Shown: positions 27,873 to 49,966 of the stretch, piece by piece
Numbering within the stretch: the stretch's first letter is position 1
Layout: each line of letters opens with the position of its first letter
Source: Desulfosudaceae bacterium
GTDB taxonomy: Bacteria > Desulfobacterota > Desulfobacteria > Desulfobacterales > Desulfosudaceae
Assembly: GCA_963674745.2 (NCBI GenBank)
Contig: CAXXDV010000003.1
Location: 1-64,000, forward strand
DNA length: 64,000 nucleotides
Direction of reading: 5' to 3'
The notes under the pieces: generated by a model
Seen by the model: only the letters and a program-made list of their open reading frames with translations
Databases searched by the model: none
What the model was told of the DNA's origin: nothing
Made by a program: the position numbers and the translations under genes

Positions 27873-27960
27873 CGTTACGTACGAAATTTATATTATATAA
27901 CGTAGATTCGCTGTTTGCGCCAGTCCGCGTTGTACATAAATTTGCAAAATCAGCCCTATA
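27873..27960 (+). repeat. res-like repeat, copy B
   Basis: CGTTACGTACGAAATT...TATATAACGTAGA, 24 bp, TGTACATAAAT...CTATA. Confidence 0.65.
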
Positions 27961-29134
27961 AGGATTCTGTATTTTGTAGAGAATCAAGTGGGCTTCGCAC
28001 TCCAAGACTATTTATTTTGGCGACATGCGTATAGATCATGGTTGTCTTTAAGCTGGAATGGCCGAGCAGTTCCTGGACAGTTCGGATATCAGATCCATCT
28101 TCAACCAGGTGAGTGGCAAATGAGTGTCTGAGCGTATGCGTGGTTACCCGTTTGGAGATGCCAGCTTTTACCGCAGCCCTTTTTAAATGCTTCTGTAAAG
28201 TGGACGGATATATATGCCACCTGCGAATAATACCTGTTTTAGGGTCCGTTGATAATGAGCTTGCCGGAAACAGCCATTGCCAGATCCACTCCTTACCGGC
28301 ATTCGGGTATTTTCTTTCAAGCGCAAAAGGCAGTTCAACACCGGGCACGTTATTTTTTCTGTCGTTTTCAAATATCAATCGAACTTTATCAATATGCTTT
28401 TTTAAATCATCCCGTAGGCTTTGAGGCAACACGGTTTGCCGGTCCTTATCGCCTTTTCCGCCAAAGATAGTAATCGTGCCTTTTTCAAGACCCACATCTT
28501 TGATCCTTAAATTCAGGCATTCAGTTAATCGCAAGCCTCCGCCATACATGATCTTTGCCATTAAACGATAAACACCATCCATATGATCAAACAAACGCAA
28601 TACCTCTGATTTGGTTAAGACAACCGGAATATTGCGCCGACTTTTTGACCTGACCACATCATTTAGATCTTCGATATCTTTTTCCAGAACATGCCGGAAG
28701 AAAAACAGCAGTGCGTTAAAAGCCTGGTTCTGGGTGGATCGGCTGAATTTTTTATCGACAGCCAAATGGGATAGAAAATTTCTTACGTGAGTGCTGTCAA
28801 GCTTGAAGGGCGAGGAGCTTCTATTAAACAGATAAAAGCACCTTAACCAATACATATACGTCTGTTCAGTGGCCAGGGCACGGCGCTTTAATCGCAGTAT
28901 GTTTTTCATCTCATTGGCTGCAAAACGCCATTGGTCATCACTGTTAACAGCTTCTGTATTGGCCGGCTTGATTTTTGTTTTGACAAAAAATTGGTATAAG
29001 TTGATGGCTTCGGCAGCCTGTTCGATCTGCCAGTCCTCGTGTTTTCTCCCCAGCTTTTGTAAATAGGTCTGAATCTCTGCGCTGGAAAGCTCATCACCAA
29101 ATTGCTTTTGGCTGGCCGACAGGCACTTTTTCAC
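27956..29134 (-). CDS. intI: Integron integrase (tyrosine recombinase); reading frame is open to 29224
   Basis: STQNQAFNAL, GGLRL.E, GKGDKDR, integron-specific insert LP.ALERKYPNA..EW.WQWLFP, HTLRHSFATH, LLGH, TMIYTH. Confidence 0.96.
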   Translation of the reverse strand: MKKCLSASQKQFGDELSSAEIQTYLQKLGRKHEDWQIEQAAEAINLYQFFVKTKIKPANTEAVNSDDQWRFAANEMKNILRLKRRALATEQTYMYWLRCFYLFNRSSSPFKLDSTHVRNFLSHLAVDKKFSRSTQNQAFNALLFFFRHVLEKDIEDLNDVVRSKSRRNIPVVLTKSEVLRLFDHMDGVYRLMAKIMYGGGLRLTECLNLRIKDVGLEKGTITIFGGKGDKDRQTVLPQSLRDDLKKHIDKVRLIFENDRKNNVPGVELPFALERKYPNAGKEWIWQWLFPASSLSTDPKTGIIRRWHIYPSTLQKHLKRAAVKAGISKRVTTHTLRHSFATHLVEDGSDIRTVQELLGHSSLKTTMIYTHVAKINSLGVRSPLDSLQNTESL

Positions 29135-29269: not shown

Positions 29270-29484
29270 GTAAAGAGGGGCGCATAATAAAAAACCGGAA
29301 TTAAAGAGTCGGTCTGTATAACATGCCAAATAGGGACAAAACACAGACCGGTTGAACAATGCTCAGCATGTCAAATGACGTTACATTTCTTATAATGGTT
29401 TGATAACAAAAGATATCGTTGATTTCTTCGAAATGATGTGATTTTATTTAATAACAACTTCAAATCTTCACAAAATCAGAAAAC

Positions 29485-29526
29485 GGGACAAAAGGCAGAC
29501 CGACTACATAATTACTAATGTTAAGT
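29485..29526 (+). other. Putative attI site
   Basis: G|TTAAGT at 29520-29526 is complementary to the inverse core ACTTAAC of the first attC; no attC palindrome upstream. Confidence 0.75.
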
Positions 29527-29806
29527 GCACTGATTCTGTACGGGAAAAAAATAAAAAAAAGAATTCTGGCGGAAAACGACATTCGTTGCCAAAATGGTAA
29601 TTGTCACCAAGTTGAATTTTTCGGCCAGTAAAGATAAATTGTAATTATGAACTGGCGCGGCCAGATGATTTTGCGCCTTTATTTGTCCGGATGAAAAGAG
29701 ACCTACCCGTTTTCATAAGTTCATGATGGACAAGGCGTAAAAAGAAAAAAATCATTTTAATTGATTTGCTCATGCTGTCGTTAAAGTCTTTCTGAATAAT
29801 GCGGGC
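29521..29806 (+). other. Cassette 1: gene-less cassette with putative promoter and long hairpin
   Basis: No + strand ORF of gene size; TTGAAT-17-TAAATT at 29612-29640; inverted repeats at 29665-29755. Confidence 0.65.
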
Positions 29807-29932
29807 ACTTAACCAAGCAGCCCAAATGACAGCCAGGGCATTCGGGTTTTGGATATACCGGGGGAATTGAACAGTAAACAACTTTAATAAAGGCAGTGGA
29901 AGCCCTGGCTGCTTTGGCTGCCGACGTTATGT
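29807..29932 (+). repeat. attC 1 (family A)
   Basis: ACTTAAC...CAGCCAGGGC/GCCCTGGCTG...GTTATGT. Confidence 0.9.
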
Positions 29933-29953
29933 GCCTCACGAAGCTAAAATTTT

Positions 29954-30298
29954 ATGCCTTTTAATGAACTTGAACTAAAAAGAATTGATAAATTTATCGG
30001 AGAAAGCTTCAGGAATCTGGTTCCGCTCGAAATTCAAAACAAATTGCGAAACGAAATTCGTATTGAAGGACAAAATGTCATAATTTCAGAGGTTCGCCCA
30101 CGATGGGATAACCCTGAAGAGTGGATTGTTTCAGATTTTGCAAAGCTTCGATATATAAGAAGTCAAAACGTTTGGAAACTTTATTGTAAGCGGGCAAGCG
30201 GTAAATGGATCTTTTACGAACCAAAAGGAGAAGCCAAAGATTTAAAAATTTTAGCGGATGAAATAGAAAAAGATAGATTCCACTATTTTTTTGGATAG
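29954..30298 (+). CDS. Cassette 2: DUF3024-family protein
   Basis: I.EVRPRW...AKL.Y.....WKLY..RA.GKW..Y.P...D....FFG. Confidence 0.85.
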   Translation: MPFNELELKRIDKFIGESFRNLVPLEIQNKLRNEIRIEGQNVIISEVRPRWDNPEEWIVSDFAKLRYIRSQNVWKLYCKRASGKWIFYEPKGEAKDLKILADEIEKDRFHYFFG

Positions 30299-30303
30299 TT
30301 GGC

Positions 30304-30430
30304 ACATAACCAACAAGCTCAAGTGGACAGCCAGGGCACTCGGGTTTTGAAATTTCGAGGGAATTGAACAACCATAATCTTTAACTAAGCTGGTGGAAAC
30401 CCTGGCTGCCATTGGCTTGAGACGTTCGAT
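30304..30430 (+). repeat. attC 2 (family A)
   Basis: ACATAAC...GTTCGAT palindrome. Confidence 0.9.
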
Positions 30431-30438
30431 GCATAAAA

Positions 30439-30831
30439 ATGTCATACAAAATGAATCAAAAACAATTTGATCAGGTTGTCTCATTATCATCGGAAAAACG
30501 ATATGCCCACTTTATATCGAAAACCACTGATTGGGAGGAGATCTGGACGCTAAAAGGCCCTGATGGTTTTGTATTATTTGGCGATCCATCTGGTCATGAG
30601 TGCGTTCCTCTATGGCCACATCCTGATTATGCGACAGCCTTCACAAATGGCGAATGGTCAAACTGTGCCGCAGAACGACTTGAATTAAGCGTTTTTTTAG
30701 AACGGTGGATACCAGGCATGATAAAAGATAAACGAATGGTAGCGGTATTCCCAACTCCGGATGAAAAAGGAATCGTTATTGACCCTCAGAAATTAAATGA
30801 AGATTTATCTGCGGAATCAGAAAAGTATTAA
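30439..30831 (+). CDS. Cassette 3: DUF2750-family protein
   Basis: RY.HFI....DWEEIW.L...G...P.WP..YA...W...FLE.WIPG. Confidence 0.85.
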   Translation: MSYKMNQKQFDQVVSLSSEKRYAHFISKTTDWEEIWTLKGPDGFVLFGDPSGHECVPLWPHPDYATAFTNGEWSNCAAERLELSVFLERWIPGMIKDKRMVAVFPTPDEKGIVIDPQKLNEDLSAESEKY

Positions 30832-30839
30832 TATGCGGC

Positions 30840-30966
30840 ATCGAACAATTCAGCGCAAGAGGATCGCCAGGGCACTCGGGTTTTGACTTCTGTGCTGAAT
30901 TGAATATGAACCGACTTTAAGACAGTCAGAGAAAGCCCTGGCGCCCTTTGGCTGAAGACGTTGAGT
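30840..30966 (+). repeat. attC 3 (family A)
   Basis: ATCGAAC...GTTGAGT palindrome. Confidence 0.9.
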
Positions 30967-30971
30967 GTAGA

Positions 30972-31337
30972 GTGAATATTTTCATTAAATTAGTACCGGT
31001 TATTTTTTTGATAATTTTTGGCTGCACTGATCCGTTCGATTTTGATGACCCGCAAAATTTTTGCGTAAGAGTTTTCAATGATACAGACAGAGAAGTAAGT
31101 ATATACTATGCTGTAGAAGATAATGATTATCATAACGAAGATGTAATAGTTAATCAGGAAAAAGAAACAATCCATGTCGGAGATCACGTGTTAATCGAAA
31201 TTCAAGCTATCTTTTGGGATGGTGAACTCACTGCTGAATATGGTGGTATATTAAATATATACGAAGTAGATGAGGAATTCCTTGGTTGCCGGGATATTCA
31301 TATTGAAGTTGATGATTTTATAGAACCAAACAAATAA
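30972..31337 (+). CDS. Cassette 4: acidic lipoprotein
   Basis: GTG start inside the cassette; lipobox-like IIFGC. Confidence 0.7.
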   Translation: MNIFIKLVPVIFLIIFGCTDPFDFDDPQNFCVRVFNDTDREVSIYYAVEDNDYHNEDVIVNQEKETIHVGDHVLIEIQAIFWDGELTAEYGGILNIYEVDEEFLGCRDIHIEVDDFIEPNK

Positions 31338-31344
31338 AATTTAC

Positions 31345-31472
31345 ACTCAACAATTCAGCGCAAAAGGATCGCCAGGGCATTCGGCTTTTGAACATTCGGG
31401 GGAAACTGAACATTAACCATTTTTAAGTCAGCTAGAGGAAGCCCTGGCGCCCTTTGGCTGAAGACGTTATAC
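31345..31472 (+). repeat. attC 4 (family A)
   Basis: ACTCAAC...GTTATAC palindrome. Confidence 0.9.
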
Positions 31473-31489
31473 ATCCGAGAGATAATGCT

Positions 31490-31888
31490 ATGCCTTTAAG
31501 CCATTTCGTTGAATCATATAAATTTTGGGACGTAGTTACGCTATGGGCAAAAGAGAAACTTGAACATGAAGACATCGTTGCAAGAGCTCTTGCCCGTGGA
31601 ATAATTCGAGATGGATTATTATTCCAAAGCATTGATACACGATGGACAAAAGGAAAAGAATTAGAATTCGATGGTGATCCATATGTTGGTTTCATCGCGA
31701 AACCAGAAGGTTTAATTATAGTGCTTCGGGCGGAAGTATTGGAACATTTATTGTCAATAGTCAGAACTGCAAAAAAACCTTCAAGGGATATAATCAAGGA
31801 CGAGTTTGTGTTGAGGGATGATTTTCATAATTGGATAATAGAAACAAAACAAACGCTCCCTCATTTTTGGTTTTCAGATAATCAATAA
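31490..31888 (+). CDS. Cassette 5: hypothetical protein
   Basis: ATG 31490; fills the cassette; ends LPHFWF. Confidence 0.75.
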   Translation: MPLSHFVESYKFWDVVTLWAKEKLEHEDIVARALARGIIRDGLLFQSIDTRWTKGKELEFDGDPYVGFIAKPEGLIIVLRAEVLEHLLSIVRTAKKPSRDIIKDEFVLRDDFHNWIIETKQTLPHFWFSDNQ

Positions 31889-31897
31889 ATAAAGGAT

Positions 31898-32020
31898 GTA
31901 TAACAACACCATGCACTTGACTCGCAGGGGCGAGCTGCTTTGAAAGTATCGTAGTTCGGTGTTAACGTGGCTTTGCAAAAGTCACCTTTCCCTGCTCCCA
32001 AGTGACGGTGGACGTTCGGC
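31898..32020 (+). repeat. attC 5 (family B, divergent)
   Basis: GTATAAC...GACTCGCAGGGG/CCCTGC...GTTCGGC. Confidence 0.85.
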
Positions 32021-32036
32021 ATCAAATGAAAATATA

Positions 32037-32444
32037 ATGGAGCAAATTAAAACAGAAAACCAGATCGCAATCGAGAAAATTTCTGCTGGATTAAAAGATT
32101 TATCCCTATCGGTATTTTTGATGACAATTGCCCTTGGAGTCTTATTCTATATCATTTATCATAATGATTTAGATACTCGTAAGGGAGAATATTTGTTATT
32201 TTATTCTCTTGTTCCATTTGGTGCGACATTGATACTATCGATAATATCAATCTACAAAATTGGAAAAACTTTACAGAAGAATGTTGATGTTTGGTTTTTG
32301 GCCAGTATTATCTTTCCGATAGTTATTTTTATTGCGATACTTTATTTCTTTATCATCGCAGTTTTCCAAATAATAAAATTAAAATTAAGCAAGGATGCCG
32401 AACAAGGCAGCGCAAAAAGACAACCAGGGCAGGTGCGTTTCTGA
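32037..32444 (+). CDS. Cassette 6: membrane protein (reads into attC)
   Basis: Three hydrophobic segments; ATG 32037. Confidence 0.7.
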   Translation: MEQIKTENQIAIEKISAGLKDLSLSVFLMTIALGVLFYIIYHNDLDTRKGEYLLFYSLVPFGATLILSIISIYKIGKTLQKNVDVWFLASIIFPIVIFIAILYFFIIAVFQIIKLKLSKDAEQGSAKRQPGQVRF

Positions 32445-32524
32445 ACATTCGGGGGAATTGAATATCAAACAACTTTAAGGAAGGCGGAGGACGCCCTGGC
32501 TGCTTTTGGCTGCCGCCGTTATAT
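32397..32524 (+). repeat. attC 6 (family A)
   Basis: GCCGAAC...GTTATAT palindrome. Confidence 0.88.
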
Positions 32525-32546
32525 TTTAAAGGGTAAATAAATTATT

Positions 32547-32996
32547 ATGGCCTTGAGCCTTTCCGAAAGAATGGACTTGTTCCAAAGATTTAAGGATAAG
32601 GACATTGATAAGTTGCTCAAATTATCAGTAACTTTTAAGGCCAACAAAAATTATGATAAGGCCCACCTTACTGATTTGCTGATAAAAATTAAAACCCAGG
32701 ATATTGATGGCTTAAAACGGCTAACCAAAGAATTATCACGTTCTGGAGCTTTGATGGAATCAGTTTATGCTGATTCTCTGTTACAAGAAAAATTATCGAG
32801 AAAAACAGAAGAAAGAAAACAAGCGAAAAAACAGAAAAAGATGGCCAAGCGCGAGAAGAAAGAAGAACCCGAAGAAGATAAGTCTATACCGCCATTTGGG
32901 CTAACAGATGAGGTTTATGAGGCTATGTCGAAAAGAATTGCACTTAACTCACAAAGACATAAGGACAGGATAAAAGGAGCCTCAGAGACAGAATAA
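32547..32996 (+). CDS. Cassette 7: basic, coiled-coil-like hypothetical protein
   Basis: 149 aa, Lys/Glu rich, fills the cassette. Confidence 0.75.
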   Translation: MALSLSERMDLFQRFKDKDIDKLLKLSVTFKANKNYDKAHLTDLLIKIKTQDIDGLKRLTKELSRSGALMESVYADSLLQEKLSRKTEERKQAKKQKKMAKREKKEEPEEDKSIPPFGLTDEVYEAMSKRIALNSQRHKDRIKGASETE

Positions 32997-32997
32997 A

Positions 32998-33121
32998 ATA
33001 TAACAACGCCACTCACACAGACTCGCAGGGGCGCCCTGCCTTAGTTTTTGCATAGTGTGGTGTTGAACTAACATTTAAGAAGTCCGCAAACCCTGCTCGC
33101 CGGTGGTGGCGGACGTTATAT
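32998..33121 (+). repeat. attC 7 (family B)
   Basis: ATATAAC AACGCCAC...GTGGCGGAC GTTATAT. Confidence 0.92.
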
Positions 33122-33178
33122 GCTTTAATTGATTTTCTTTAAAGAAATTCTGCTCTTGTGGATATATAATGACAAAGT

Positions 33179-33436
33179 ATGATTGAGACTAAATCAGACT
33201 TTCGGGAACAAAAGGGATTTAAATCCGACGATCTTGTGTGCCATTGCTTTGGGTACACGAAAAAAGATATTGAATTTGACCTGAAGGAAAATGGCAAATC
33301 CCTTATCCTTGAGAGAATAGCTCTTGAGAAAAAAGCTGGCGGATGTAATTGCGTTTCGAAAAACCCATGTGGCGAATGATGTTTAGCTGATGTCCGCCAG
33401 GTGGTGGAATCATTTAAAAAGAAAAACAGCATATAA
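33179..33436 (+). CDS. Cassette 8: BFD-like/CopZ-associated Fe-S/metal-binding probable selenoprotein (UGA 33377-33379 read as Sec)
   Basis: VCHCFGYT...CNC...NPCGE(UGA)CLADV; SECIS-like hairpin at 33388-33412; next stop TAA lies in the attC inverse core. Confidence 0.8.
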
Positions 33437-33554
33437 CAACACGTTGGTGAGGGACCGCAAGGGGCGGTCGGTTTTGGCACTTATCAAATAATTCAAAAAC
33501 GTGTCTTCGGCGGCGGCCCGTTTCCCTTGCGGCCCCACACCGTGGACGTTAGGA
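33431..33554 (+). repeat. attC 8 (family B-related, divergent)
   Basis: ATATAAC...CCGCAAGGG/CCCTTGCGG...GTTAGGA. Confidence 0.85.
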
Positions 33555-33566
33555 ATATAATATTTT

Positions 33567-34031
33567 ATGAAGCTACCCGACATGTTGATGGCTTTAATCC
33601 TTATTGCGCTTGGCTCTTTCCTTTTTATGGTTTCATATCATCATCTAAATAATTCAAAAGCCACAGAAAAATGGGTAAAACATAAAGGAGTTGTTTTAAA
33701 TATTGATTACGAGCGTACCTCAATGGGACGTAGAATTAGCAATAGTCCTGTTGTTAAATACAAGTACGAAGTAGATGGAAAAACTTTTCGATCAAATGAC
33801 AGGGAGTTCCCGGATGGGCTAGAAGATGAGGATATATTTGGGCTATATAAAAAGGATAATATAATTGCAATCTACTATAATCCGAATAAACATGCTGAAT
33901 CCTCGCTATTTATTGGCACTAATACAATGAATTATATTTTTCTGTGTTTTTCAGCAATTATTGCTATTGTCGGATTGTTGTTTTTATTTTTTATAGCCAT
34001 TAAAGCAAAAATACAGAGTATGAATTCCTAA
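33567..34031 (+). CDS. Cassette 9: DUF3592-like membrane protein
   Basis: TM, W...G.V, Y.Y.VDG, YYNP..H.ES.L, TM; stop in the attC core. Confidence 0.8.
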   Translation: MKLPDMLMALILIALGSFLFMVSYHHLNNSKATEKWVKHKGVVLNIDYERTSMGRRISNSPVVKYKYEVDGKTFRSNDREFPDGLEDEDIFGLYKKDNIIAIYYNPNKHAESSLFIGTNTMNYIFLCFSAIIAIVGLLFLFFIAIKAKIQSMNS

Positions 34032-34153
34032 CAAGGCATCGCAAGAGGATCGCCAGGGCACTCGGGTTTTGAACATTCGAAGAAAATTGGCCATAATACA
34101 ACTTTAAGTCAGTCGGAGTAAGCCCTGGCGCCCTTTGGCTGCCGACGTTATAT
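34026..34153 (+). repeat. attC 9 (family A)
   Basis: TCCTAAC...GTTATAT palindrome. Confidence 0.9.
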
Positions 34154-34158
34154 GCAAT

Positions 34159-34458
34159 ATGAATGATACAAATATCAAAAATTTGAAAGAAGCTGTTGGC
34201 TTGGCATGTGACGCATCGTACACGCCAAATATTTTGAAGGGGAGAGATATTATTCTCTCAATGCCAAAAAAATGGGTTCTTGAAAATATCGAAAATGTTG
34301 CGGCGGAAACGCTGAACTTATCCGACGAATGGCATTTTAGGCGGCTTCTGGAAGTTTACGAAACCCTTGATCAAGATTTGGTTACAAAATTAGTTGAGTT
34401 TGGTCTTAAAAGCACAAACGAAGAAATCGTTGAAGCCGCAACTGATTTTAAGAAATAA
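34159..34458 (+). CDS. Cassette 10: small helical hypothetical protein
   Basis: ATG 34159; DEW.FRRLLE...EI.EAA.DF. Confidence 0.75.
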   Translation: MNDTNIKNLKEAVGLACDASYTPNILKGRDIILSMPKKWVLENIENVAAETLNLSDEWHFRRLLEVYETLDQDLVTKLVEFGLKSTNEEIVEAATDFKK

Positions 34459-34467
34459 TATTTTTGC

Positions 34468-34591
34468 ATATAACAACGCCACCCACACGGACTCGCAGGG
34501 GCGGGCCGCCTTGGCTTTGGCGTATTTTGGAGTTAAACTCACTTTAGCGAAGTCCGCAAGCCCTGCTCGCCGGTGGTGGCGGACGTTAGAC
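34468..34591 (+). repeat. attC 10 (family B)
   Basis: ATATAAC...GTTAGAC; body identical by eye to attC 14. Confidence 0.92.
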
Positions 34592-34592
34592 C

Positions 34593-34949
34593 TTGAAAAT
34601 TATTTTTATGGGCATCCACCTCCTTACCCGATATCGACGAAAACTATATTTTGTTCTGGGTTTTTTTCTTATTGTTTATGCACTTAATATTTTTGTTTTT
34701 GCAAAAAATCTCAGAGAATTTACATATATGTCATTTTGGTTGTTCATGTTCCCTGGTTATATTACAGGATATCTGTTACTGCTGGTCGCTTTAGAATTTA
34801 CATTGAGAGGAAAAAGAGGAAAATATTTACGAACGGTCGAGAATATTTTTTTAGGAGTATTTTTTTGTGCATTAACAATAATCTTTTTACTCTCTGCATG
34901 GCACTTCGGTGGCGTAGGATATGTTTGGAATATAATAATGCCGGTCTAA
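34593..34949 (+). CDS. Cassette 11: membrane protein
   Basis: Three hydrophobic segments; stop in the attC core; start uncertain. Confidence 0.7.
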   Translation: MKIIFMGIHLLTRYRRKLYFVLGFFLIVYALNIFVFAKNLREFTYMSFWLFMFPGYITGYLLLLVALEFTLRGKRGKYLRTVENIFLGVFFCALTIIFLLSAWHFGGVGYVWNIIMPV

Positions 34950-35067
34950 CAACGCCACTCACGCAGACTCGCAGGGGCGGGCCGCCTTGGATTTGGCGTA
35001 ATTTTGAGTTAAACTCACTTTAAAGAAGTCCGCAAACCCTGCTCGCCGGTGGTGGCGGACGTTGTGC
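34944..35067 (+). repeat. attC 11 (family B)
   Basis: GTCTAAC...GTTGTGC palindrome. Confidence 0.92.
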
Positions 35068-35085
35068 AGCATAAAACGGTATTCT

Positions 35086-35673
35086 ATGCGAAAAATATTA
35101 TTAATCTTAATTCCGTGCTTAACTCTTTATGCTTGTGGGTCAGGTTCACCGGTTTACACTGTGATGGAAGGTAGTGAAGCTATCATTACTCAAAAGGGAG
35201 AAATAGTTAGAGGCCCTGTTAAACCCGGGCTTCATTTTAAATTACCTTTTGCCGAAAACGTTCATGAATTTAAAGTATGCAGAATTGAACAAATACCGAT
35301 AAAATTAAACAGTTTTCCTGAATATACTGCTTCTATTCTCTGGAAAATCCAAGAGCCAAAGGCTTTTTATTATGCCACTCGAGATAAAGACATAAAAATA
35401 GTTTTAGATAGTCTCTCAGATAAATTTCAAAAGGCGCTAAAGAACATTGAAACTGATAAGATTGCACAAATCGCTGAGGGACAGGAAAGCGATTGCAACT
35501 ATTCAAATCATATGTACGAAAATATTAAAGAGAGCATACAAAGCCAAGCCAAATCGATTGGTATAGAAATCTATAGTATAATTTTTAAAAAAGTTAATGC
35601 GGCTGCACAACAACGCCACTCACACGGACTCGCAGGGGCGGCCTGCCTTAGTTTTAGCATAGTGTGGTGTTGA
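35086..35673 (+). CDS. Cassette 12: SPFH/HflC-like lipoprotein (reads into attC)
   Basis: Lipobox LYAC; V.EG..AIIT..G...PGLHFKLPF; WKI..P..FY; GIEI. Confidence 0.75.
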   Translation: MRKILLILIPCLTLYACGSGSPVYTVMEGSEAIITQKGEIVRGPVKPGLHFKLPFAENVHEFKVCRIEQIPIKLNSFPEYTASILWKIQEPKAFYYATRDKDIKIVLDSLSDKFQKALKNIETDKIAQIAEGQESDCNYSNHMYENIKESIQSQAKSIGIEIYSIIFKKVNAAAQQRHSHGLAGAACLSFSIVWC

Positions 35674-35728
35674 ACTAACCCTTAAAAAGTCCGCAAACCC
35701 TGCTCGCCGGTGGTGGCGGACGTTATAT
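35605..35728 (+). repeat. attC 12 (family B)
   Basis: GCACAAC...GTTATAT palindrome. Confidence 0.92.
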
Positions 35729-35761
35729 GCTTTGAACTTAAATGCACAAAAATAATTTCAC

Positions 35762-36142
35762 ATGTTCAAAAAAAGATTACTAAACATTCAATGTCCAGAT
35801 TGTAGTGGAGAATTCGATCTGAACTCCGAAGCGATGAAGCAAAGAAAAAACCGTCGTAATTTTTTTTATTTATCTGAAATTGAATGTCCATTATGCAATT
35901 CTATTTTAATTCCAAATATAAATGCCAGAAGAAGAGCCATTTTCATGTTATCACTTTTTGTTCTTGCTTTTATATGGATTATTTTGGGAGTTATTTCCGA
36001 TCTGACAAGCTTTGGGATCAATTATAATTTATATAAATACGTATCAATTTCTCTTTTGGGTTTATTTGGTTTTGCTACCATATATATTAGATTTAAATAT
36101 TCTACATATGAACTAATAAGTAGAAAGAATAATGGCATATAA
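35762..36142 (+). CDS. Cassette 13: zinc-ribbon, 2-TM protein
   Basis: CPDC...CPLC followed by two TM segments; stop in the attC core. Confidence 0.75.
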   Translation: MFKKRLLNIQCPDCSGEFDLNSEAMKQRKNRRNFFYLSEIECPLCNSILIPNINARRRAIFMLSLFVLAFIWIILGVISDLTSFGINYNLYKYVSISLLGLFGFATIYIRFKYSTYELISRKNNGI

Positions 36143-36261
36143 CAACGCCACTCACCCGGACTCGCAGGGGCGGTCGGTTTTGGGTTTTAGCATAGTGTGG
36201 TGTTAAACGAACATTTAAGAAGTCCGCATCCCCTGCTCGCCGGTGGTGGCGGACGTTATAT
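36137..36261 (+). repeat. attC 13 (family B)
   Basis: ATATAAC...GTTATAT palindrome. Confidence 0.92.
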
Positions 36262-36345
36262 TTTTTATAAAGATGAAATTGATGAGATAGTACTGATTTT
36301 TTGGCTATTGATATTTAAAACTAAAAGCGAATTGGAACAATTGTT

Positions 36346-36609
36346 TTGATAGCCGAATACAAATCCAAAGCAAATATTGGTGTAGGAGTAGGTTTTCTCC
36401 TTCAAGCGTTGAGCATTGTAATGCCCCGTTTCGGAAATGCCGGGGAGTTGATCGGCACTATATTTGCCGCGGTAGGAGGAATTCTCTTCCTATGGGGCTG
36501 TTGTATGTATGCGAAAGGCAAGGGACATCACAGCGCATGGGGTTTGCTTGCATTTTTGTCGCTTCCTGGATTATTGGTCTTGGTTCTTTTTAAAGACGAG
36601 CATAAGTAA
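36346..36609 (+). CDS. Cassette 14: small membrane protein
   Basis: WGC..YAKGKGH...WGLL...GLLVL...D. Confidence 0.75.
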   Translation: MIAEYKSKANIGVGVGFLLQALSIVMPRFGNAGELIGTIFAAVGGILFLWGCCMYAKGKGHHSAWGLLAFLSLPGLLVLVLFKDEHK

Positions 36610-36622
36610 ATTATTCCGAAAA

Positions 36623-36746
36623 ATATAACAACGCCACCCACACGGACTCGCAGGGGCGGGCCGCCTTGGCTTTGGCGTATTTTGGAGTTAAACTCACTTT
36701 AGCGAAGTCCGCAAGCCCTGCTCGCCGGTGGTGGCGGACGTTAGCT
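36623..36746 (+). repeat. attC 14 (family B)
   Basis: ATATAAC...GTTAGCT palindrome. Confidence 0.92.
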
Positions 36747-36757
36747 TTATAAAGTCG

Positions 36758-37201
36758 ATGATAAAAAAATATTTCATATCTGCTTTTTGGGGGCTATTCG
36801 CAGTACTGATACCTTATTCCGTTTTGGTTTTCATTGTTGGAAAGTACACCCCGTCAAATATTTATGGATTAGTTGCCAGTATTTTAGCCCTGATGATAGG
36901 TTTCATTCTCTTGTTTTGTGGGGGGTATATTTCCGGAAGTCTGCTTGGAAACGAAAAAAATGAACGAATTGAAATTTTGAAATTATTACTGGTGACACCT
37001 GGTTTATACATAAGCATTTTTGCCTTTGTGTATATTTCTTTTTGTGATCGTCATAATGTTTTTCAATTTTTTATGATGCTCTTTTTGATATTTTTTTCAA
37101 CGATGGGATCATTTTTGGGATATAAAAACAAATCAAAAGCTAACAAGGCATCGCAAGAGGATCGCCAGGGCACTCGGGTTTTGGACAATTTTGGGGATTG
37201 A
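36758..37201 (+). CDS. Cassette 15: 4-TM membrane protein (reads into attC)
   Basis: ATG 36758; four hydrophobic segments. Confidence 0.7.
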   Translation: MIKKYFISAFWGLFAVLIPYSVLVFIVGKYTPSNIYGLVASILALMIGFILLFCGGYISGSLLGNEKNERIEILKLLLVTPGLYISIFAFVYISFCDRHNVFQFFMMLFLIFFSTMGSFLGYKNKSKANKASQEDRQGTRVLDNFGD

Positions 37202-37264
37202 ACTTAAAACACCTTTAAGGCAGTCAGAGAAAGCCCTGGCGCCCTTTGGCTGCCGCCGTTGTGC
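37138..37264 (+). repeat. attC 15 (family A)
   Basis: AGCTAAC...GTTGTGC palindrome. Confidence 0.9.
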
Positions 37265-37531
37265 GTATAAAACGCTTTTTGGAAAATCGAGCTACTCGAT
37301 AATTTTTGGCAGGATGAATTTGAAACAAAGGGGGAAAAAGATATAATTTTCATCTTTGCGAATGAACCACCGGCATCGATCAGATCATGCGTTTCTGATC
37401 AGCCGGAAATTGGATTTTTTGAATTCGCCAGTCAATCCGGAAAAGATGAAAAACGGTTTCTGTAATTTTTTGCAAAACTTTGTAACGAAAAGCCCTGCAA
37501 ATTTTTGTGAATCACTATAAAATATATTTTC
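37259..37531 (+). other. Cassette 16: gene-less cassette with promoter and branched secondary structure
   Basis: No ORF of 60 aa or more on either strand; TTGAAA-16-TATAAT at 37320-37347; nested inverted repeats at 37347-37452. Confidence 0.7.
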
Positions 37532-37656
37532 GCACAACAATGCAGCCCAAATGACAGCCAGGGCACTCGGGTTCGAAAATTCGGGGAAAATTGAACTTTA
37601 ACCATCTTTAAGGCAGTCGGAGAAAGCCCTGGCTACTTTGGCTGCAGACGTTATAA
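37532..37656 (+). repeat. attC 16 (family A)
   Basis: GCACAAC...GTTATAA palindrome. Confidence 0.9.
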
Positions 37657-37683
37657 GACAAATCAGAAATAGAAAAAATCGAA

Positions 37684-38013
37684 TTGGTTGACCATAAAAA
37701 GAAAAATAGATTTTATAATATCCAATTAATCCTAATAATCCCGAGCATGTTTATTTCGTTTTATGTGATTTGGCAATACAAGCAAGGTTTTTTGAGCAAA
37801 GATACAGTAACTTTGTGGTTCGCAGTCTTGTTTTGCCTAATATCATTTTTGAGCGCTTTCTTTTCAGTTGTCTCTGGAAGAGCCTGGGCGTCAGGAGTTG
37901 CTATCGATAAAGAAAAAATGCCTAAACTGTTCAATGTTCTGGTGTCTTTCTACTTTCTATTTTCAGCTTTATGTTTTGTAACTGTCTTATATTATATAAA
38001 CATAATCTTATAA
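37684..38013 (+). CDS. Cassette 17: membrane protein
   Basis: Three TM segments; stop in the attC core. Confidence 0.7.
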   Translation: MVDHKKKNRFYNIQLILIIPSMFISFYVIWQYKQGFLSKDTVTLWFAVLFCLISFLSAFFSVVSGRAWASGVAIDKEKMPKLFNVLVSFYFLFSALCFVTVLYYINIIL

Positions 38014-38086
38014 CCATTCAGCGCAAAGGATCGCCAGGGCATTCGGGTTTTGAACATTCGGGGGAAATTGAACAATTAAAATCTTT
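38008..38086 (+). repeat. attC 17, truncated (right arm missing)
   Basis: TTATAAC...GATCGCCAGGGC...; no GCCCTGG...GTT arm follows. Confidence 0.85.
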
Positions 38087-38117
38087 ATCCCGGAAAGATT
38101 ATGATTTGGGTCTTTCT

Positions 38118-38205
38118 GGCAACCCAAACCGGCGCGGCTATTAAAATCAAAGCCAAGAATGTTGTCAAATTCAATGCTGGGAAGAAGTTGAGCGACGCTG
38201 TATAA
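38118..38205 (+). pseudogene. hup: 3' remnant of an HU (histone-like protein) gene
   Basis: Translates QTGAAIKIKAKNVVKFNAGKKLSDAV*, the HU C-terminus. Confidence 0.8.
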
Positions 38206-38589: not shown

Positions 38590-38621
38590 GGACAGCGGTT
38601 CAACTCCCGCCGCCTCCACCA
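38590..38621 (+). other. tmRNA (ssrA) 3'-end fragment, probable att site
   Basis: GGACAGCGGTTCAACTCCCGCCGCCTCCACCA: T-loop plus Ala acceptor 3' strand, with no 5' part of the gene upstream. Confidence 0.75.
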
Positions 38622-38819
38622 ATTTACCCATAATTTCAATTATTTATAAATAATAGGCGCAAAATTGTGTCTATTATTCTTTTTCCTGTTTTTTCTGTCG
38701 GTATTTCTGCTATTTGTTGTATCGTTCCCATGATCAATTCCATATGCTACGAAAACGGGTTTTGCTTGATTAAAATAAATTACTTGACAAATTTTGCAAG
38801 TTAATATATTTAAGCAAGT

Positions 38820-40722: not shown

Positions 40723-40842
40723 TGACACAAAATTATTCATGATGATGAATAATGACAAAAGGCAGAATGAGACGCTGCTTAAAATTATTTATAAATTACT
40801 GTTATTGTGGGAAAAAATATCAATGTGCCTTGGTGGAAAAAC

Positions 40843-40867
40843 CGGGGTTCAACTCCCGCCGCCCCCA
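40843..40867 (+). other. Second, degenerate tmRNA 3'-end repeat
   Basis: CGGGGTTCAACTCCCGCCGCCCCCA; followed by arm-like repeats TTGTGACCAAA x2 at ~40925-40958. Confidence 0.65.
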
Positions 40868-40996
40868 ATAATTCTTTAATTATTTCAATTTGTTATAAAA
40901 CAAATTGAAGCCATTTTTGCCGATTGTGACCAAATTGTGACCAAATTGTGGTCACAATTTTTTTTGCCCTGCATTCTCATTCTTCTCCCTGTAAAC

Positions 40997-41056
40997 CCGG
41001 GCAATGACAGAGGTGGGCGTCAGGCAATGACATCAAAGGCAAGTCGGGCAATGACG
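40997..41056. repeat. REP-like GGCAATGAC tandem half-palindromes
   Basis: Three GGCAATGAC copies; same family as 49184-49397. Confidence 0.65.
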
Positions 41057-41074
41057 TGGAGGTAAAGGCTGCTA

Positions 41075-42151
41075 TCAGGCAGCCTTTTTTACGTAGTAAT
41101 GATTAAGCAGTCCGCCGAGAAGAGGCTGACAGCGGATGTCTTCGGGATCGGCGGGTTTGTCGGGAAAATCAAACCCGTCTGGTATGCGATTGTTTATACC
41201 CTGGTGAGGTCGTTGTTGATTGTGATGCGTTTCAATGCATTTAAGAACATGCCGAAAATGCCTTTCCCCCAAAGGGATGATATCGTTCAGAGTCTCTCTG
41301 GCTTCCCGGACAAATCGTTCGGCATAGGCATTACACATAGGCGTTTTGGGTGGTGTCTTGACGATTTTGATGCCGTCGGTTTTGATGATTTGATCAAACG
41401 GTATAAAACTTGAATCCCGATCATGAATAATATACCTGCAGGGCGCCTGGTCATCGGCAAGTTTCATGGACAGGTTTCTGGCCTGCTGTTTCATCCAGGC
41501 AGCATTCGGGTGAGGCGTGCAGCCGGCGATATGCACGCTACGGGTGCCAAGGTGAATGAAAAACAGCACGTAGAACGTAACCAAGCCTCTTGTTGTCCAG
41601 ACTTCCTCGGTAAAAAAGTCGGTGGCCCAGATAACGTTTAAATGAGACTTAATGAAGGTTGCCCAGGGCAGGCCTTTGCGTTGAGGTGAGGGCGGCAGGC
41701 CGTGCTTTTTTAAGATGTTGGCCACAGTAGTGGGTGAAAGGCAGTGGCCCAGTTTCATCAGCTCACCGGCGATACGGATATAGCCAATATTGTTTTCATG
41801 GGCGATCTTCAAGGCCAGGATTTCCGTCTGTTCCGGCGTCTTTGGCCGCCCTGGTTTTTTACGGGTATTGTCATACGTCCATTTGGATTTTTTCATGCGC
41901 CGGTGCCAGGCCAGCAAAGTCTCGGGTTTTACAATAGAGATGATCTGGGCCAGCCGATCCTTTATGGGCATACCAACGCTGACCAGAATCCGGCGTTCCG
42001 CGTCTGTCAATGGAACGCGCTTGCCGATTTTGCTGCGCAGGATTTTATTCTCCTGCCGCAGGTAAGCATTCTCAAGAGCGATGCGGGATTTGAACAATCG
42101 GCCGATAGCCGCTAAAAACTGTGTTGCCTGAAGCGATAACTTGCCTTCCAT
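41075..42151 (-). CDS. rve (integrase core) DDE transposase-like protein
   Basis: KPETLLAWHR, WATDFF, IHDRD, NAYAERFV, RPHQG, LGGLLNHY. Confidence 0.85.
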   Translation of the reverse strand: MEGKLSLQATQFLAAIGRLFKSRIALENAYLRQENKILRSKIGKRVPLTDAERRILVSVGMPIKDRLAQIISIVKPETLLAWHRRMKKSKWTYDNTRKKPGRPKTPEQTEILALKIAHENNIGYIRIAGELMKLGHCLSPTTVANILKKHGLPPSPQRKGLPWATFIKSHLNVIWATDFFTEEVWTTRGLVTFYVLFFIHLGTRSVHIAGCTPHPNAAWMKQQARNLSMKLADDQAPCRYIIHDRDSSFIPFDQIIKTDGIKIVKTPPKTPMCNAYAERFVREARETLNDIIPLGERHFRHVLKCIETHHNQQRPHQGINNRIPDGFDFPDKPADPEDIRCQPLLGGLLNHYYVKKAA

Positions 42152-49183: not shown

Positions 49184-49397
49184 CTGGATTAGTCGGTCAA
49201 GCCGAGTAATGACTCCTTTGCACGTCATCATCCGGCTCGACCGGATGATCCAGAGTATAATTGGCTGTATTCAGAATAACTGGCCTGTCGGATTTGCTGG
49301 ATTGCCCGGTCAAGCCGGGCAATGACATCAAAGGTAAACCGGGCAATGACAATAAGGTTGTCGGGCAATGACATCAAAGGCAAGTCGGGCAATGACG
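49184..49397. repeat. REP-like palindromic repeat cluster
   Basis: GTCATCATCCGGCTCGACCGGATGATCCAG ... CTGGATTGCCCGGTCAAGCCGGGCAATGAC plus tandem GGGCAATGAC copies. Confidence 0.75.
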
Positions 49398-49415
49398 TGA
49401 AGGTAAAGGCCGCTA

Positions 49416-49966
49416 TCAGGCAGCCCTTTTTACGTAGTAGTGATTAAGCAGGCCGCGAGCAGGGATTGACAATGTACTTCTTCGGGATTGGCGGGTTTTT
49501 CCGGATAATCAAATCCGTCTGGTATGCGATTATTTATACCCTGGTGAGGGCGTTGAGTATTATGATGGGTTTCAATGCAGCGCAGGACATGCCGAAAATG
49601 TTTTTCTCTCAGAGGGATGATCTTGTCCAGCGTCTCCCTGGCTTCCCGGACAAACCGTTCGGCATAGGCATTACACATGGGTGTCTGAGGTGGGGTTTTT
49701 ACGATTTTAATGCCATCGGTTTTAATAATGTGATCCAACGGTATAAAACTTGAGTCCCGGCCATGAATAATATACCTGCAGGGAACCTGGTCGTCGGCAA
49801 GTTTCATGGACAGGTTTCTGGCTTGTTGTTTCATCTTGGCGGAGTTCGGGTGGGGCGTGCAGCCGGCGATATGAATGCTGCGGGTTCCCAGATTAATAAA
49901 AAATAACACGTAGAACGTAACGAGCCCTCTTGACGTCCAGACTTCTTCAGTAAAAAAGTCAGTCAC
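49416..49966 (-). pseudogene. 5'-truncated, frameshifted copy of the rve transposase-like gene
   Basis: Closely similar to the 3' half of 41075-42151; HDRD changed to HGRD; frameshift near the 3' end. Confidence 0.85.

Follow-up and report, generated by a model that had tools for sequence, protein, structure and literature searches.

Can an integron cassette carry a gene whose correct reading depends on the host's ability to recode a stop codon? The question is raised by a short gene at positions 33179-33436 in a 64,000-nt stretch (here called the window) of contig CAXXDV010000003.1 from a Desulfosudaceae bacterium, which an initial annotation had described as a selenoprotein gene on an integron gene cassette. 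Judging from the sequence, we consider it very probable that 33179-33436 is an intact selenoprotein gene, borne by one promoterless cassette (33116-33548) of a chromosomal integron. The protein family is already catalogued, and it is the occurrence of a selenoprotein gene as an integron cassette that seems to be unreported. Since the family and integron cassettes are each already known, this is a modest advance.

In the mechanism that we propose, the ribosome would reach the UGA at codon 67, and a stem-loop within the open reading frame (ORF; stem-loop core, 33393-33408) would recruit SelB carrying Sec-tRNA(Sec), where Sec denotes selenocysteine. Selenocysteine would be inserted, and translation would go on for 18 codons to a TAA that belongs to the core of the cassette's attC site. 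The predicted product is an 85-residue BFD-like domain of the CopZ-N-terminal type with six conserved thiol/selenol positions. The cassette would rely on selA, selB, selC, and selD of its host. Because the signal for recoding sits within the ORF, ahead of attC, the cassette would itself carry every cis element that is needed.

An in-frame UGA and the hairpin behind it

The features that bear on the reading of the gene are as follows.

33179..33436, plus strand: predicted selenoprotein gene, 85 aa including U67; CopZ-N-terminal / BFD-like [2Fe-2S] domain with a GxUC motif (from the translation, sub-cut-off family matches, a profile match, and a structural model)
33377..33379, plus strand: UGA predicted to be read as selenocysteine (U67); TGA column conserved in relatives, with Cys in distant homologues
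33382..33418, plus strand: SECIS-type stem-loop; core stem 33393-33398 / 33403-33408, apical loop AGGU 33399-33402 (from the fold, pair retention, and synonymous entropy)

Under standard translation the ORF spans 33179..33379, encodes 66 aa, and stops at TGA 33377-33379. With TGA translated as U, the reading frame extends to TAA 33434-33436, giving MIETKSDFREQKGFKSDDLVCHCFGYTKKDIEFDLKENGKSLILERIALEKKAGGCNCVSKNPCGE-U-CLADVRQVVESFKKKNSI, 85 residues in length. The read-through sequence ...NPCGE-U-CLADVRQVVESFKKKNSI that the initial annotation had reported around this codon is reproduced exactly. The motif in the window protein is G65-E66-U67-C68 (GxUC), and six Cys/Sec columns are invariant or nearly invariant, namely C21, C23, C56, C58, U67, and C68.

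Related loci were collected by scanning DNA collections for patterns taken from the protein's N-terminal portion. All of these patterns lie upstream of the TGA, so the TGA itself was not selected for. The 112 loci, 32 in genome contigs and 80 in metagenome contigs (the best 80 of 310), correspond to 87 distinct proteins. TGA stands at the aligned column in 110 of the 112, that is, in every locus whose alignment covers the column. Locus L041 also has it, as judged by eye, 1 nt before the end of its contig, which brings the count to 111/112; the remaining copy, L043, is truncated after residue 53 and is missing the 3' part with the Sec column. TGG was found at this column in none of the 111 loci in which the column is present. 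Beyond the TGA, the frame reads C-L-A-D-V-R/H-Q-V-V nearly throughout. L073, L091/L092, L122, and L132 have another in-frame stop, either near the conserved UGA or ahead of it.

An exhaustive HMMER search returned 975 proteins at an E value of ≤0.001, and the best 150 representatives were examined. The motif NPxGxCC, with Cys at columns 67-68, occurs in 76 of them, matching what the initial annotation had stated of the family at the Sec position, and the Cys homologues run on through this column as ...CCLGDV.... Another 63 stop short of the Sec column (59 end exactly there), and one is an unrelated protein. In the annotation of all three relatives returned by a word-indexed protein search (P0002-P0004), the last residue is the one that precedes the UGA. 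Gene callers evidently cut the gene at this codon, as seen in at least 59 truncated versions among the 150 best public matches, and surveys of cassettes will therefore miss it. Sec/Cys pairing, a conserved in-frame UGA, and conservation downstream of it together make up the standard signature of a selenoprotein gene.

The hairpin core TCCGCC-AGGT-GGTGGA (33393-33408), lengthened by TGAT/ATCA and an outer stem, had been pointed out in the initial annotation and is indeed the minimum free energy (MFE) fold of 33377-33424. This hairpin begins 13 nt downstream of the UGA. For the 48 nt from the TGA, the MFE has a z score of -2.89, and 2 of 200 shuffled sequences fold equally well. By itself the single hairpin of the window is only modestly unusual compared with chance; its conservation across relatives is the convincing part. 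When 80 distinct 42-nt segments from the UGA onward were aligned without gaps, the seven-pair stem was formed in 91.1% of cells, compared with 30 to 68% for slid controls, and the variable pairs show compatible changes (CG 63 / UG 10 / UA 5 and GU 48 / AU 26 / GC 5). Codon usage tells the same story. Across positions +5 to +9 (V R Q V V), codon entropy is 0.78, 0.22, 0, 0.54, and 0.17 bits, whereas flanking four- and sixfold degenerate codons have 1.4 to 2.1 bits. The Arg at +6 is encoded by CGC in 54 of 56 sequences, whereas the Arg at -1 uses six codons (2.13 bits); the Val codons at +8 and +9 are GTG in 66/72 and 75/77 sequences, respectively. This collapse of synonymous variation at +5 to +9 argues for selection on the RNA and not on the protein alone.

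A model of the bacterial selenocysteine insertion sequence (SECIS) element, the bSECIS model, is set out in PMC13188914 (section 5 and the legend of Fig. 2). It describes a loop of 3 to 9 nt on a stem of 4 to 16 bp with a G in the first two loop positions, a spacing of 16 to 37 nt from the UGA, and an MFE of ≤-7.5. The window hairpin agrees with the model on all four counts, having a 6-bp core stem, the 4-nt loop AGGU, a loop that begins 19 nt after the UGA, and an MFE of -13.6 kcal/mol. A search of the whole 64-kb window against Rfam with gathering thresholds returned no matches.

The initial annotation had proposed looking for selA, selB, selC, and selD in the genome, and all four were found. 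The host assembly comprises 3 contigs (5.55 Mb, 99.96% complete). A tRNA-Sec was located by ARAGORN at C3:1015585-1015682, and in the ARAGORN listing of the host's 48 tRNAs there is no other with the anticodon UCA. The matches to selA (607.9 bits), selB (369.8 bits, C1:1156265-1158157), and selD (368.6 bits, C1:326061-326981) all lie above their curated cut-offs. The host selD itself has one in-frame TGA, in the context ...GAG-U-ASK, and a second full-length selB-like gene (C3:1795409-1797292) scores 239.9 bits, just below the cut-off of 242.25. Conservation of the TGA, its pairing with Cys, a conserved hairpin that fits the SECIS model, and Sec machinery in the host bear out the proposal that the UGA is a selenocysteine codon.

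A limit on the cassette's host range set by Sec decoding follows logically, in principle, from how decoding works. Every one of the 41 sampled genomes of the host's order has selA, as do 9 of 10 genomes that carry relatives of the selenoprotein gene; the exception is a metagenome-assembled genome (MAG) labelled Phycisphaerae, in which the relative lies on a 2.5-kb contig. The requirement for Sec would therefore be no barrier among the likely exchange partners.

The cassette and its integron

The integron that holds the gene has the following parts.

27956..29134, minus strand: intI, integron integrase, 392 aa, divergent from the array; NCBIfam TIGR02249, 415.7 bits against a cut-off of 265
29377..29386, plus strand: probable attI crossover (GACGTTAC, G at 29380) and start of cassette 1, placed by its motif
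29381..38124, plus strand: cassette array with 16 complete attC sites and cassettes of 392-661 bp (from crossover spacing, alignment A3, and RNAalifold)
32998..33121, plus strand: attC of cassette 7, 114.6 bits; its GTT (G at 33115, T at 33116) is the left boundary of the selenoprotein cassette
33116..33548, plus strand: cassette 8, 433 bp, a single gene with its own attC; crossover G at 33115 and 33548
33431..33554, plus strand: attC of cassette 8, of a sequence type unique in the array, with the TAA of the gene in its 5' core; 86.5 bits with covariance model R1, as a training member
38028..38124, plus strand: truncated 17th attC at the distal end of the array; only R1 model positions 22-107 match

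Between intI and the first attC, the attI candidate is the earliest ..CGTTA.. motif; it lies 546 bp ahead of the next crossover. The array that follows contains 16 plus-strand repeats of 120-128 nt, each ending in ..CGTT.. and spaced 392-661 bp apart. They fall into three sequence types that can still be aligned. The consensus fold of the 16 sites (alignment A3, RNAalifold) has 21 pairs, 13 of them with compensatory changes, many of which are supplied by the attC of cassette 8. Because structure rather than sequence is conserved across the repeat types, the repeats behave as attC sites. Covariance model R1, whose training set is the same 16 complete attC sites that it recovers, found these, the truncated 17th, and nothing more in the window at an E value of ≤0.1.

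The crossovers of cassette 8 fall between 33115 and 33116 and between 33548 and 33549 (after the G of GTT). The selenoprotein gene accordingly sits between two attC sites in an array beside an integron integrase, as the initial annotation had it. Its TAA, 33434-33436, lies within the 5' core ATATAAC (33431-33437) of the attC of cassette 8. The stop codon is also inside the attC core in cassettes 9 (34029-31), 11 (34947-49), 13 (36140-42), and 17 (38011-13), the same four that had been listed initially, with ORF ends and attC starts in agreement. Other cassettes encode DUF3024, DUF2750, and DUF3592 proteins, an SPFH protein, and several proteins without a family.

The array resembles the sedentary chromosomal integrons of Vibrio (PMC1382264): each cassette holds one short ORF, all ORFs share one strand, the attC sites measure 120-128 nt and have paired R and L boxes, intI is divergent, and neighbouring cassettes encode domains of unknown function. 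Unlike the Vibrio cassettes, the cargo of the window needs stop-codon recoding. PMC1382264 mentions only a "selenocysteine lyase" annotation.

For the selenoprotein cassette, evidence of exchange is indirect, drawn from metagenomes and from relatives that stand beside attC sites elsewhere. The whole of cassette 7 (32519-33115) is present in record 9 of marine metagenome run X3, a contig of 916 nt, at ~97% identity (20 differences, 3 gaps). Unrelated sequence stands beyond both cassette ends, so cassette 7 sits there in a different array. This is direct evidence of shuffling for the neighbour of the selenoprotein cassette. The attC type of cassette 8 (33434-33553) has four matching contigs in a sludge metagenome (run X5, records 25-28; ~90% identity). 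Records 25 and 26 show 11 differences over ~110 nt, record 27 shows 2 over 45 nt, and record 28 shows 2 over 117 nt. Before 33434-33437, these contigs have unrelated sequence in place of the selenoprotein gene, so other cassettes use this attC type as well. Runs X3 and X5 give no cover of the coding part of cassette 8; in run X4 it is covered only at a 32-nt stretch comprising the UGA and hairpin, on a contig with different flanks. Cassette 8 itself would presumably be moved by IntI.

Do relatives of the gene also travel as cassettes? Scanned over the related loci, R1 has matches immediately after the homologue at 97.7 bits in L014 and 27.1 bits in L040, and it found additional attC sites in both L014 and L050. 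The genome that carries L014 is from the same family as the host (its coordinates are identical in G006 and G041), and the L014 protein is only 64-65% identical to the window protein. In L045-L050, L015, L066, L084, and others, the stop is followed by short attC-like sites (65-75 nt); R1 was built from long sites, and such short ones are invisible to it. Arms resembling those of attC (duplex energy ≤-12) follow the stop in 8 of 82 unique loci, compared with 1.3% of control windows, in a test that only 9 of the 16 known attC sites pass. A second attC scanner gave scores of ≥8 in 5/82 loci (0.9% of controls) and of ≥6 in 11/82 (4.1%). As these scanners are insensitive, the share of relatives borne on cassettes is only roughly bounded.

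The window IntI, compared with the related loci by tblastn, gave one weak match only, in L106. An intI gene is present in four of the five genomes with attC-adjacent relatives, never on the contig of the homologue. A tree built from 94 short proteins has poor resolution (6 of its 91 inner branches are starred). The window sequence groups in it with 20 rows (Shimodaira-Hasegawa-like approximate likelihood ratio test [SH-aLRT], 83), of which 9 are labelled attC-adjacent, partly by eye, a hint that it belongs with attC-adjacent copies. Overall, this known selenoprotein family has probably become integron cargo more than once.

The gene is patchily distributed among the host's kin. Strong matches occur in 14 of 40 genomes related to the host, or 15 genomes with the host included, and TGA is present in all 15. 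The gene was not found in a same-genus genome that is 99% complete. The gene is therefore accessory. Close relatives also occur in MAGs labelled Thermodesulfobacteriota, Nitrospirota, Planctomycetota, and Myxococcota.

Family and fold of the product

Two reviews (PMC9312934, 2022; PMC13188914, 2026) list in their tables a "(2Fe-2S)-binding protein (CopZ family) form 1" and credit Zhang & Gladyshev 2008 for the family. According to the table in PMC13188914, form 1 has the motif GxUC, and form 2, the Csac_0668 family, has CU. The window protein fits form 1 by motif and predicted domain, sharing GxUC, a CopZ-like BFD-like domain (cd10141), and Sec at the first Cys of the CC pair. The form 2 family, NF045877 (CopZ_Nterm_CU, Csac_0668 family 2Fe-2S cluster-binding (seleno)protein), belongs to the same superfamily and has Sec in the same vicinal pair, at the second position per the review table, whereas the window protein has it at the first. 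With a score of 18.4 bits against a cut-off of 190, the window protein is not a member of NF045877. The words "2Fe-2S," "BFD," and "CopZ" do not occur in the main text of Zhang & Gladyshev 2008.

The closest profile, NF047645 (CopZ_Nterm_CC, putative iron-sulfur cluster-binding metallochaperone), represents the Cys form, in which the first Cys stands where the window protein has Sec. The alignment covers profile positions 70-137 of 138, including the CC pair; the N-terminal ~70 residues, which are the zinc-binding part, have no counterpart in the window protein. Searched against PDB, a profile of the family matched 2hu9_A, residues 66-119, at an E value of 3.4e-5. The VCYC, C109, and C118-C119 of 2HU9, the N-terminal domain of Archaeoglobus fulgidus CopZ, align to C21/C23, C58, and U67/C68. 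Compared with that protein, the window protein is without the zinc ribbon and the C-terminal HMA domain and has an extra conserved Cys, C56. A single-protein phmmer search of PDB returned only rows at chance level, mostly beta-2-microglobulin (E ~0.3-0.6), with 2hu9 at 0.52.

The AlphaFold model of the product has a pLDDT (predicted local distance difference test) score of 81, with residues 1-14 disordered. Its best structural match is Bfd, the bacterioferritin-associated [2Fe-2S] ferredoxin (PDB 4E6K chain G, 6E6Q), with a Z score of 6.2, a root mean square deviation of 2.4 Å, and 53 of 57 residues aligned at 26% identity. As Z is below 8, the similarity in fold is weak when taken alone, and Foldseek found nothing in PDB at an E value of ≤0.001 (Bfd was top at ~1). 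Bfd has the arrangement CxC...CxxC, whereas the window family has CxC...CxC...(U/C)C.

Most likely, the product binds a [2Fe-2S] cluster and has the U67-C68 pair at the cluster or beside it; its role is probably in electron transfer or in the handling of metals (Cu/Hg). The CopZ of A. fulgidus is reportedly a Zn and [2Fe-2S] copper chaperone, whose N-terminal domain, CopZ-NT, is said by Sazinsky and colleagues to reduce Cu(II). Some of the Sec relatives are fusions. Three have an N-terminal HMA domain (L065:195-629, L074:747-1184, and L087:1044-1487; 22.5-25.6 bits, around the cut-off of 24.8), and one, from an Actinomycetes-labelled MAG, is fused to the CopZ zinc-binding domain PF18423 (L044:2698-3228, 41 bits). 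Cys relatives on plasmids adjoin copper and mercury functions. A Cys homologue (H5, 35% identical) lies on a plasmid from Planctomycetes (CP036351.1:38227-38439) under a gene annotated merA, mercuric reductase, and further plasmid-borne Cys homologues carry the annotation of CopZ-family copper chaperones.

The cassette setting adds context for this poorly understood selenoprotein family. In the two reviews, the word "mobile" does not appear, nor does "integron" in PMC13188914, the one review searched for it. Our literature searches, judged in part by title or opening lines of the abstract, turned up no account of a selenoprotein gene carried by an integron cassette; the papers found on attC cassettes that name selenocysteine concern lyase annotations only.

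Alternative readings and wider circulation

Several observations weigh against an intact, working selenoprotein cassette. The best family match, to NF047645, reaches only 50.9 bits against a cut-off of 100 (E value, 1.8e-13), and the only Pfam match, to Fer2_BFD (PF04324), reaches 18.1 bits against a gathering threshold of 26 (E value, 0.0035); the PF04324 label is precomputed on two relatives. The residues C64 and E66 are atypical, as relatives have K/S and R/K/N there. The hairpin shows modest covariation, as its sequence is strongly conserved and also codes for conserved residues. Most relatives are not visibly adjacent to attC and many lie in other contexts, and a second copy of the downstream element was found nearby at only 3 of 108 loci. 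Finally, the pairing of Cys with the UGA, borne out by the 76 Cys representatives, does not extend to all of the 150, of which seven have W and three have R at the Sec column.

The cassette lies ~3.7 kb from attI, eighth in the array, and no sigma-70-like promoter was found on the cassette strand in 32900-33700. Given this position and the lack of a promoter, it may be poorly expressed. The same two facts, the unusual C64 and E66, and the 99%-complete genome of the same genus without the gene, which shows it to be dispensable, would suit a genuine Sec-type cassette whose cargo is silent or decaying, a stored variant too far from the integron promoter. We think this improbable, since the ORF, the UGA, the hairpin, and all six Cys/Sec positions are intact, the end branch of the window in the tree (0.23, compared with a median of 0.15) is not exceptional, and distal cassettes of chromosomal integrons can still be transcribed or reshuffled forward. 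The intact gene is predicted to be expressed, if perhaps at a low level.

The remaining alternatives concern the codon. Were the TGA a true stop, the 66-aa protein would be the functional one, with the downstream frame open by chance or kept as DNA or RNA structure. Gene callers do end the protein there, in P0002-P0004 and in the 59 truncated representatives, and the downstream 57 nt adjoin an attC site; however, the downstream frame is open and conserved at the amino acid level in 110 loci, many with no attC behind them, Cys homologues continue through the same column, and a 66-aa product would lose the final helix of the fold as well as the invariant C68. This makes termination at the TGA very improbable. 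Slimmer still is the chance that a suppressor tRNA or an altered code makes the UGA read as Trp, Gly, or Cys. The W in seven public representatives speaks for such decoding, and TGA is translated as W under other code tables, which is not confirmed as the origin of these seven; the coding DNA of the seven W and three R representatives was not found among the collected loci. Against it stand the tRNA-Sec as sole tRNA with anticodon UCA, the presence of selA, selB, and selD, a hairpin with SECIS spacing and a G-containing loop, and the absence of TGG from the column in all related loci that have it.

Selenocysteine insertion into the product of an intact cassette gene is accordingly the reading that we prefer. 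On this basis, a gene that is read correctly only given a particular host trait, the Sec machinery, can be kept in an integron, with the recoding signal inside the cassette. The locus would offer a natural system for asking whether the decoding ability of recipients filters the exchange of cassettes and how far SelB proteins tolerate a foreign SECIS. A broader idea, that a whole clade of the GxUC CopZ-like selenoprotein circulates as integron cassettes among anaerobes of several phyla, is tentative, and we lean toward doubting it. If it were true, integrons would traffic genes that work only where UGA can be recoded, and the near-invariant TCCRCC-AGGT-GGTGGA would be a broadly accepted SECIS, allowing one cassette to work with many SelB proteins.

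Beyond the array, the window contains two copies of a sequence resembling a tRNA 3' end (38592-38650 and 40841-40899) and direct repeats of 300-400 nt, 8.3 kb apart (41019-41415 and 49360-49755). An IS481/IS3-like transposase gene lies just past the array (41075-42151). The repeats and the transposase could be part of another mobile element that adjoins the integron.

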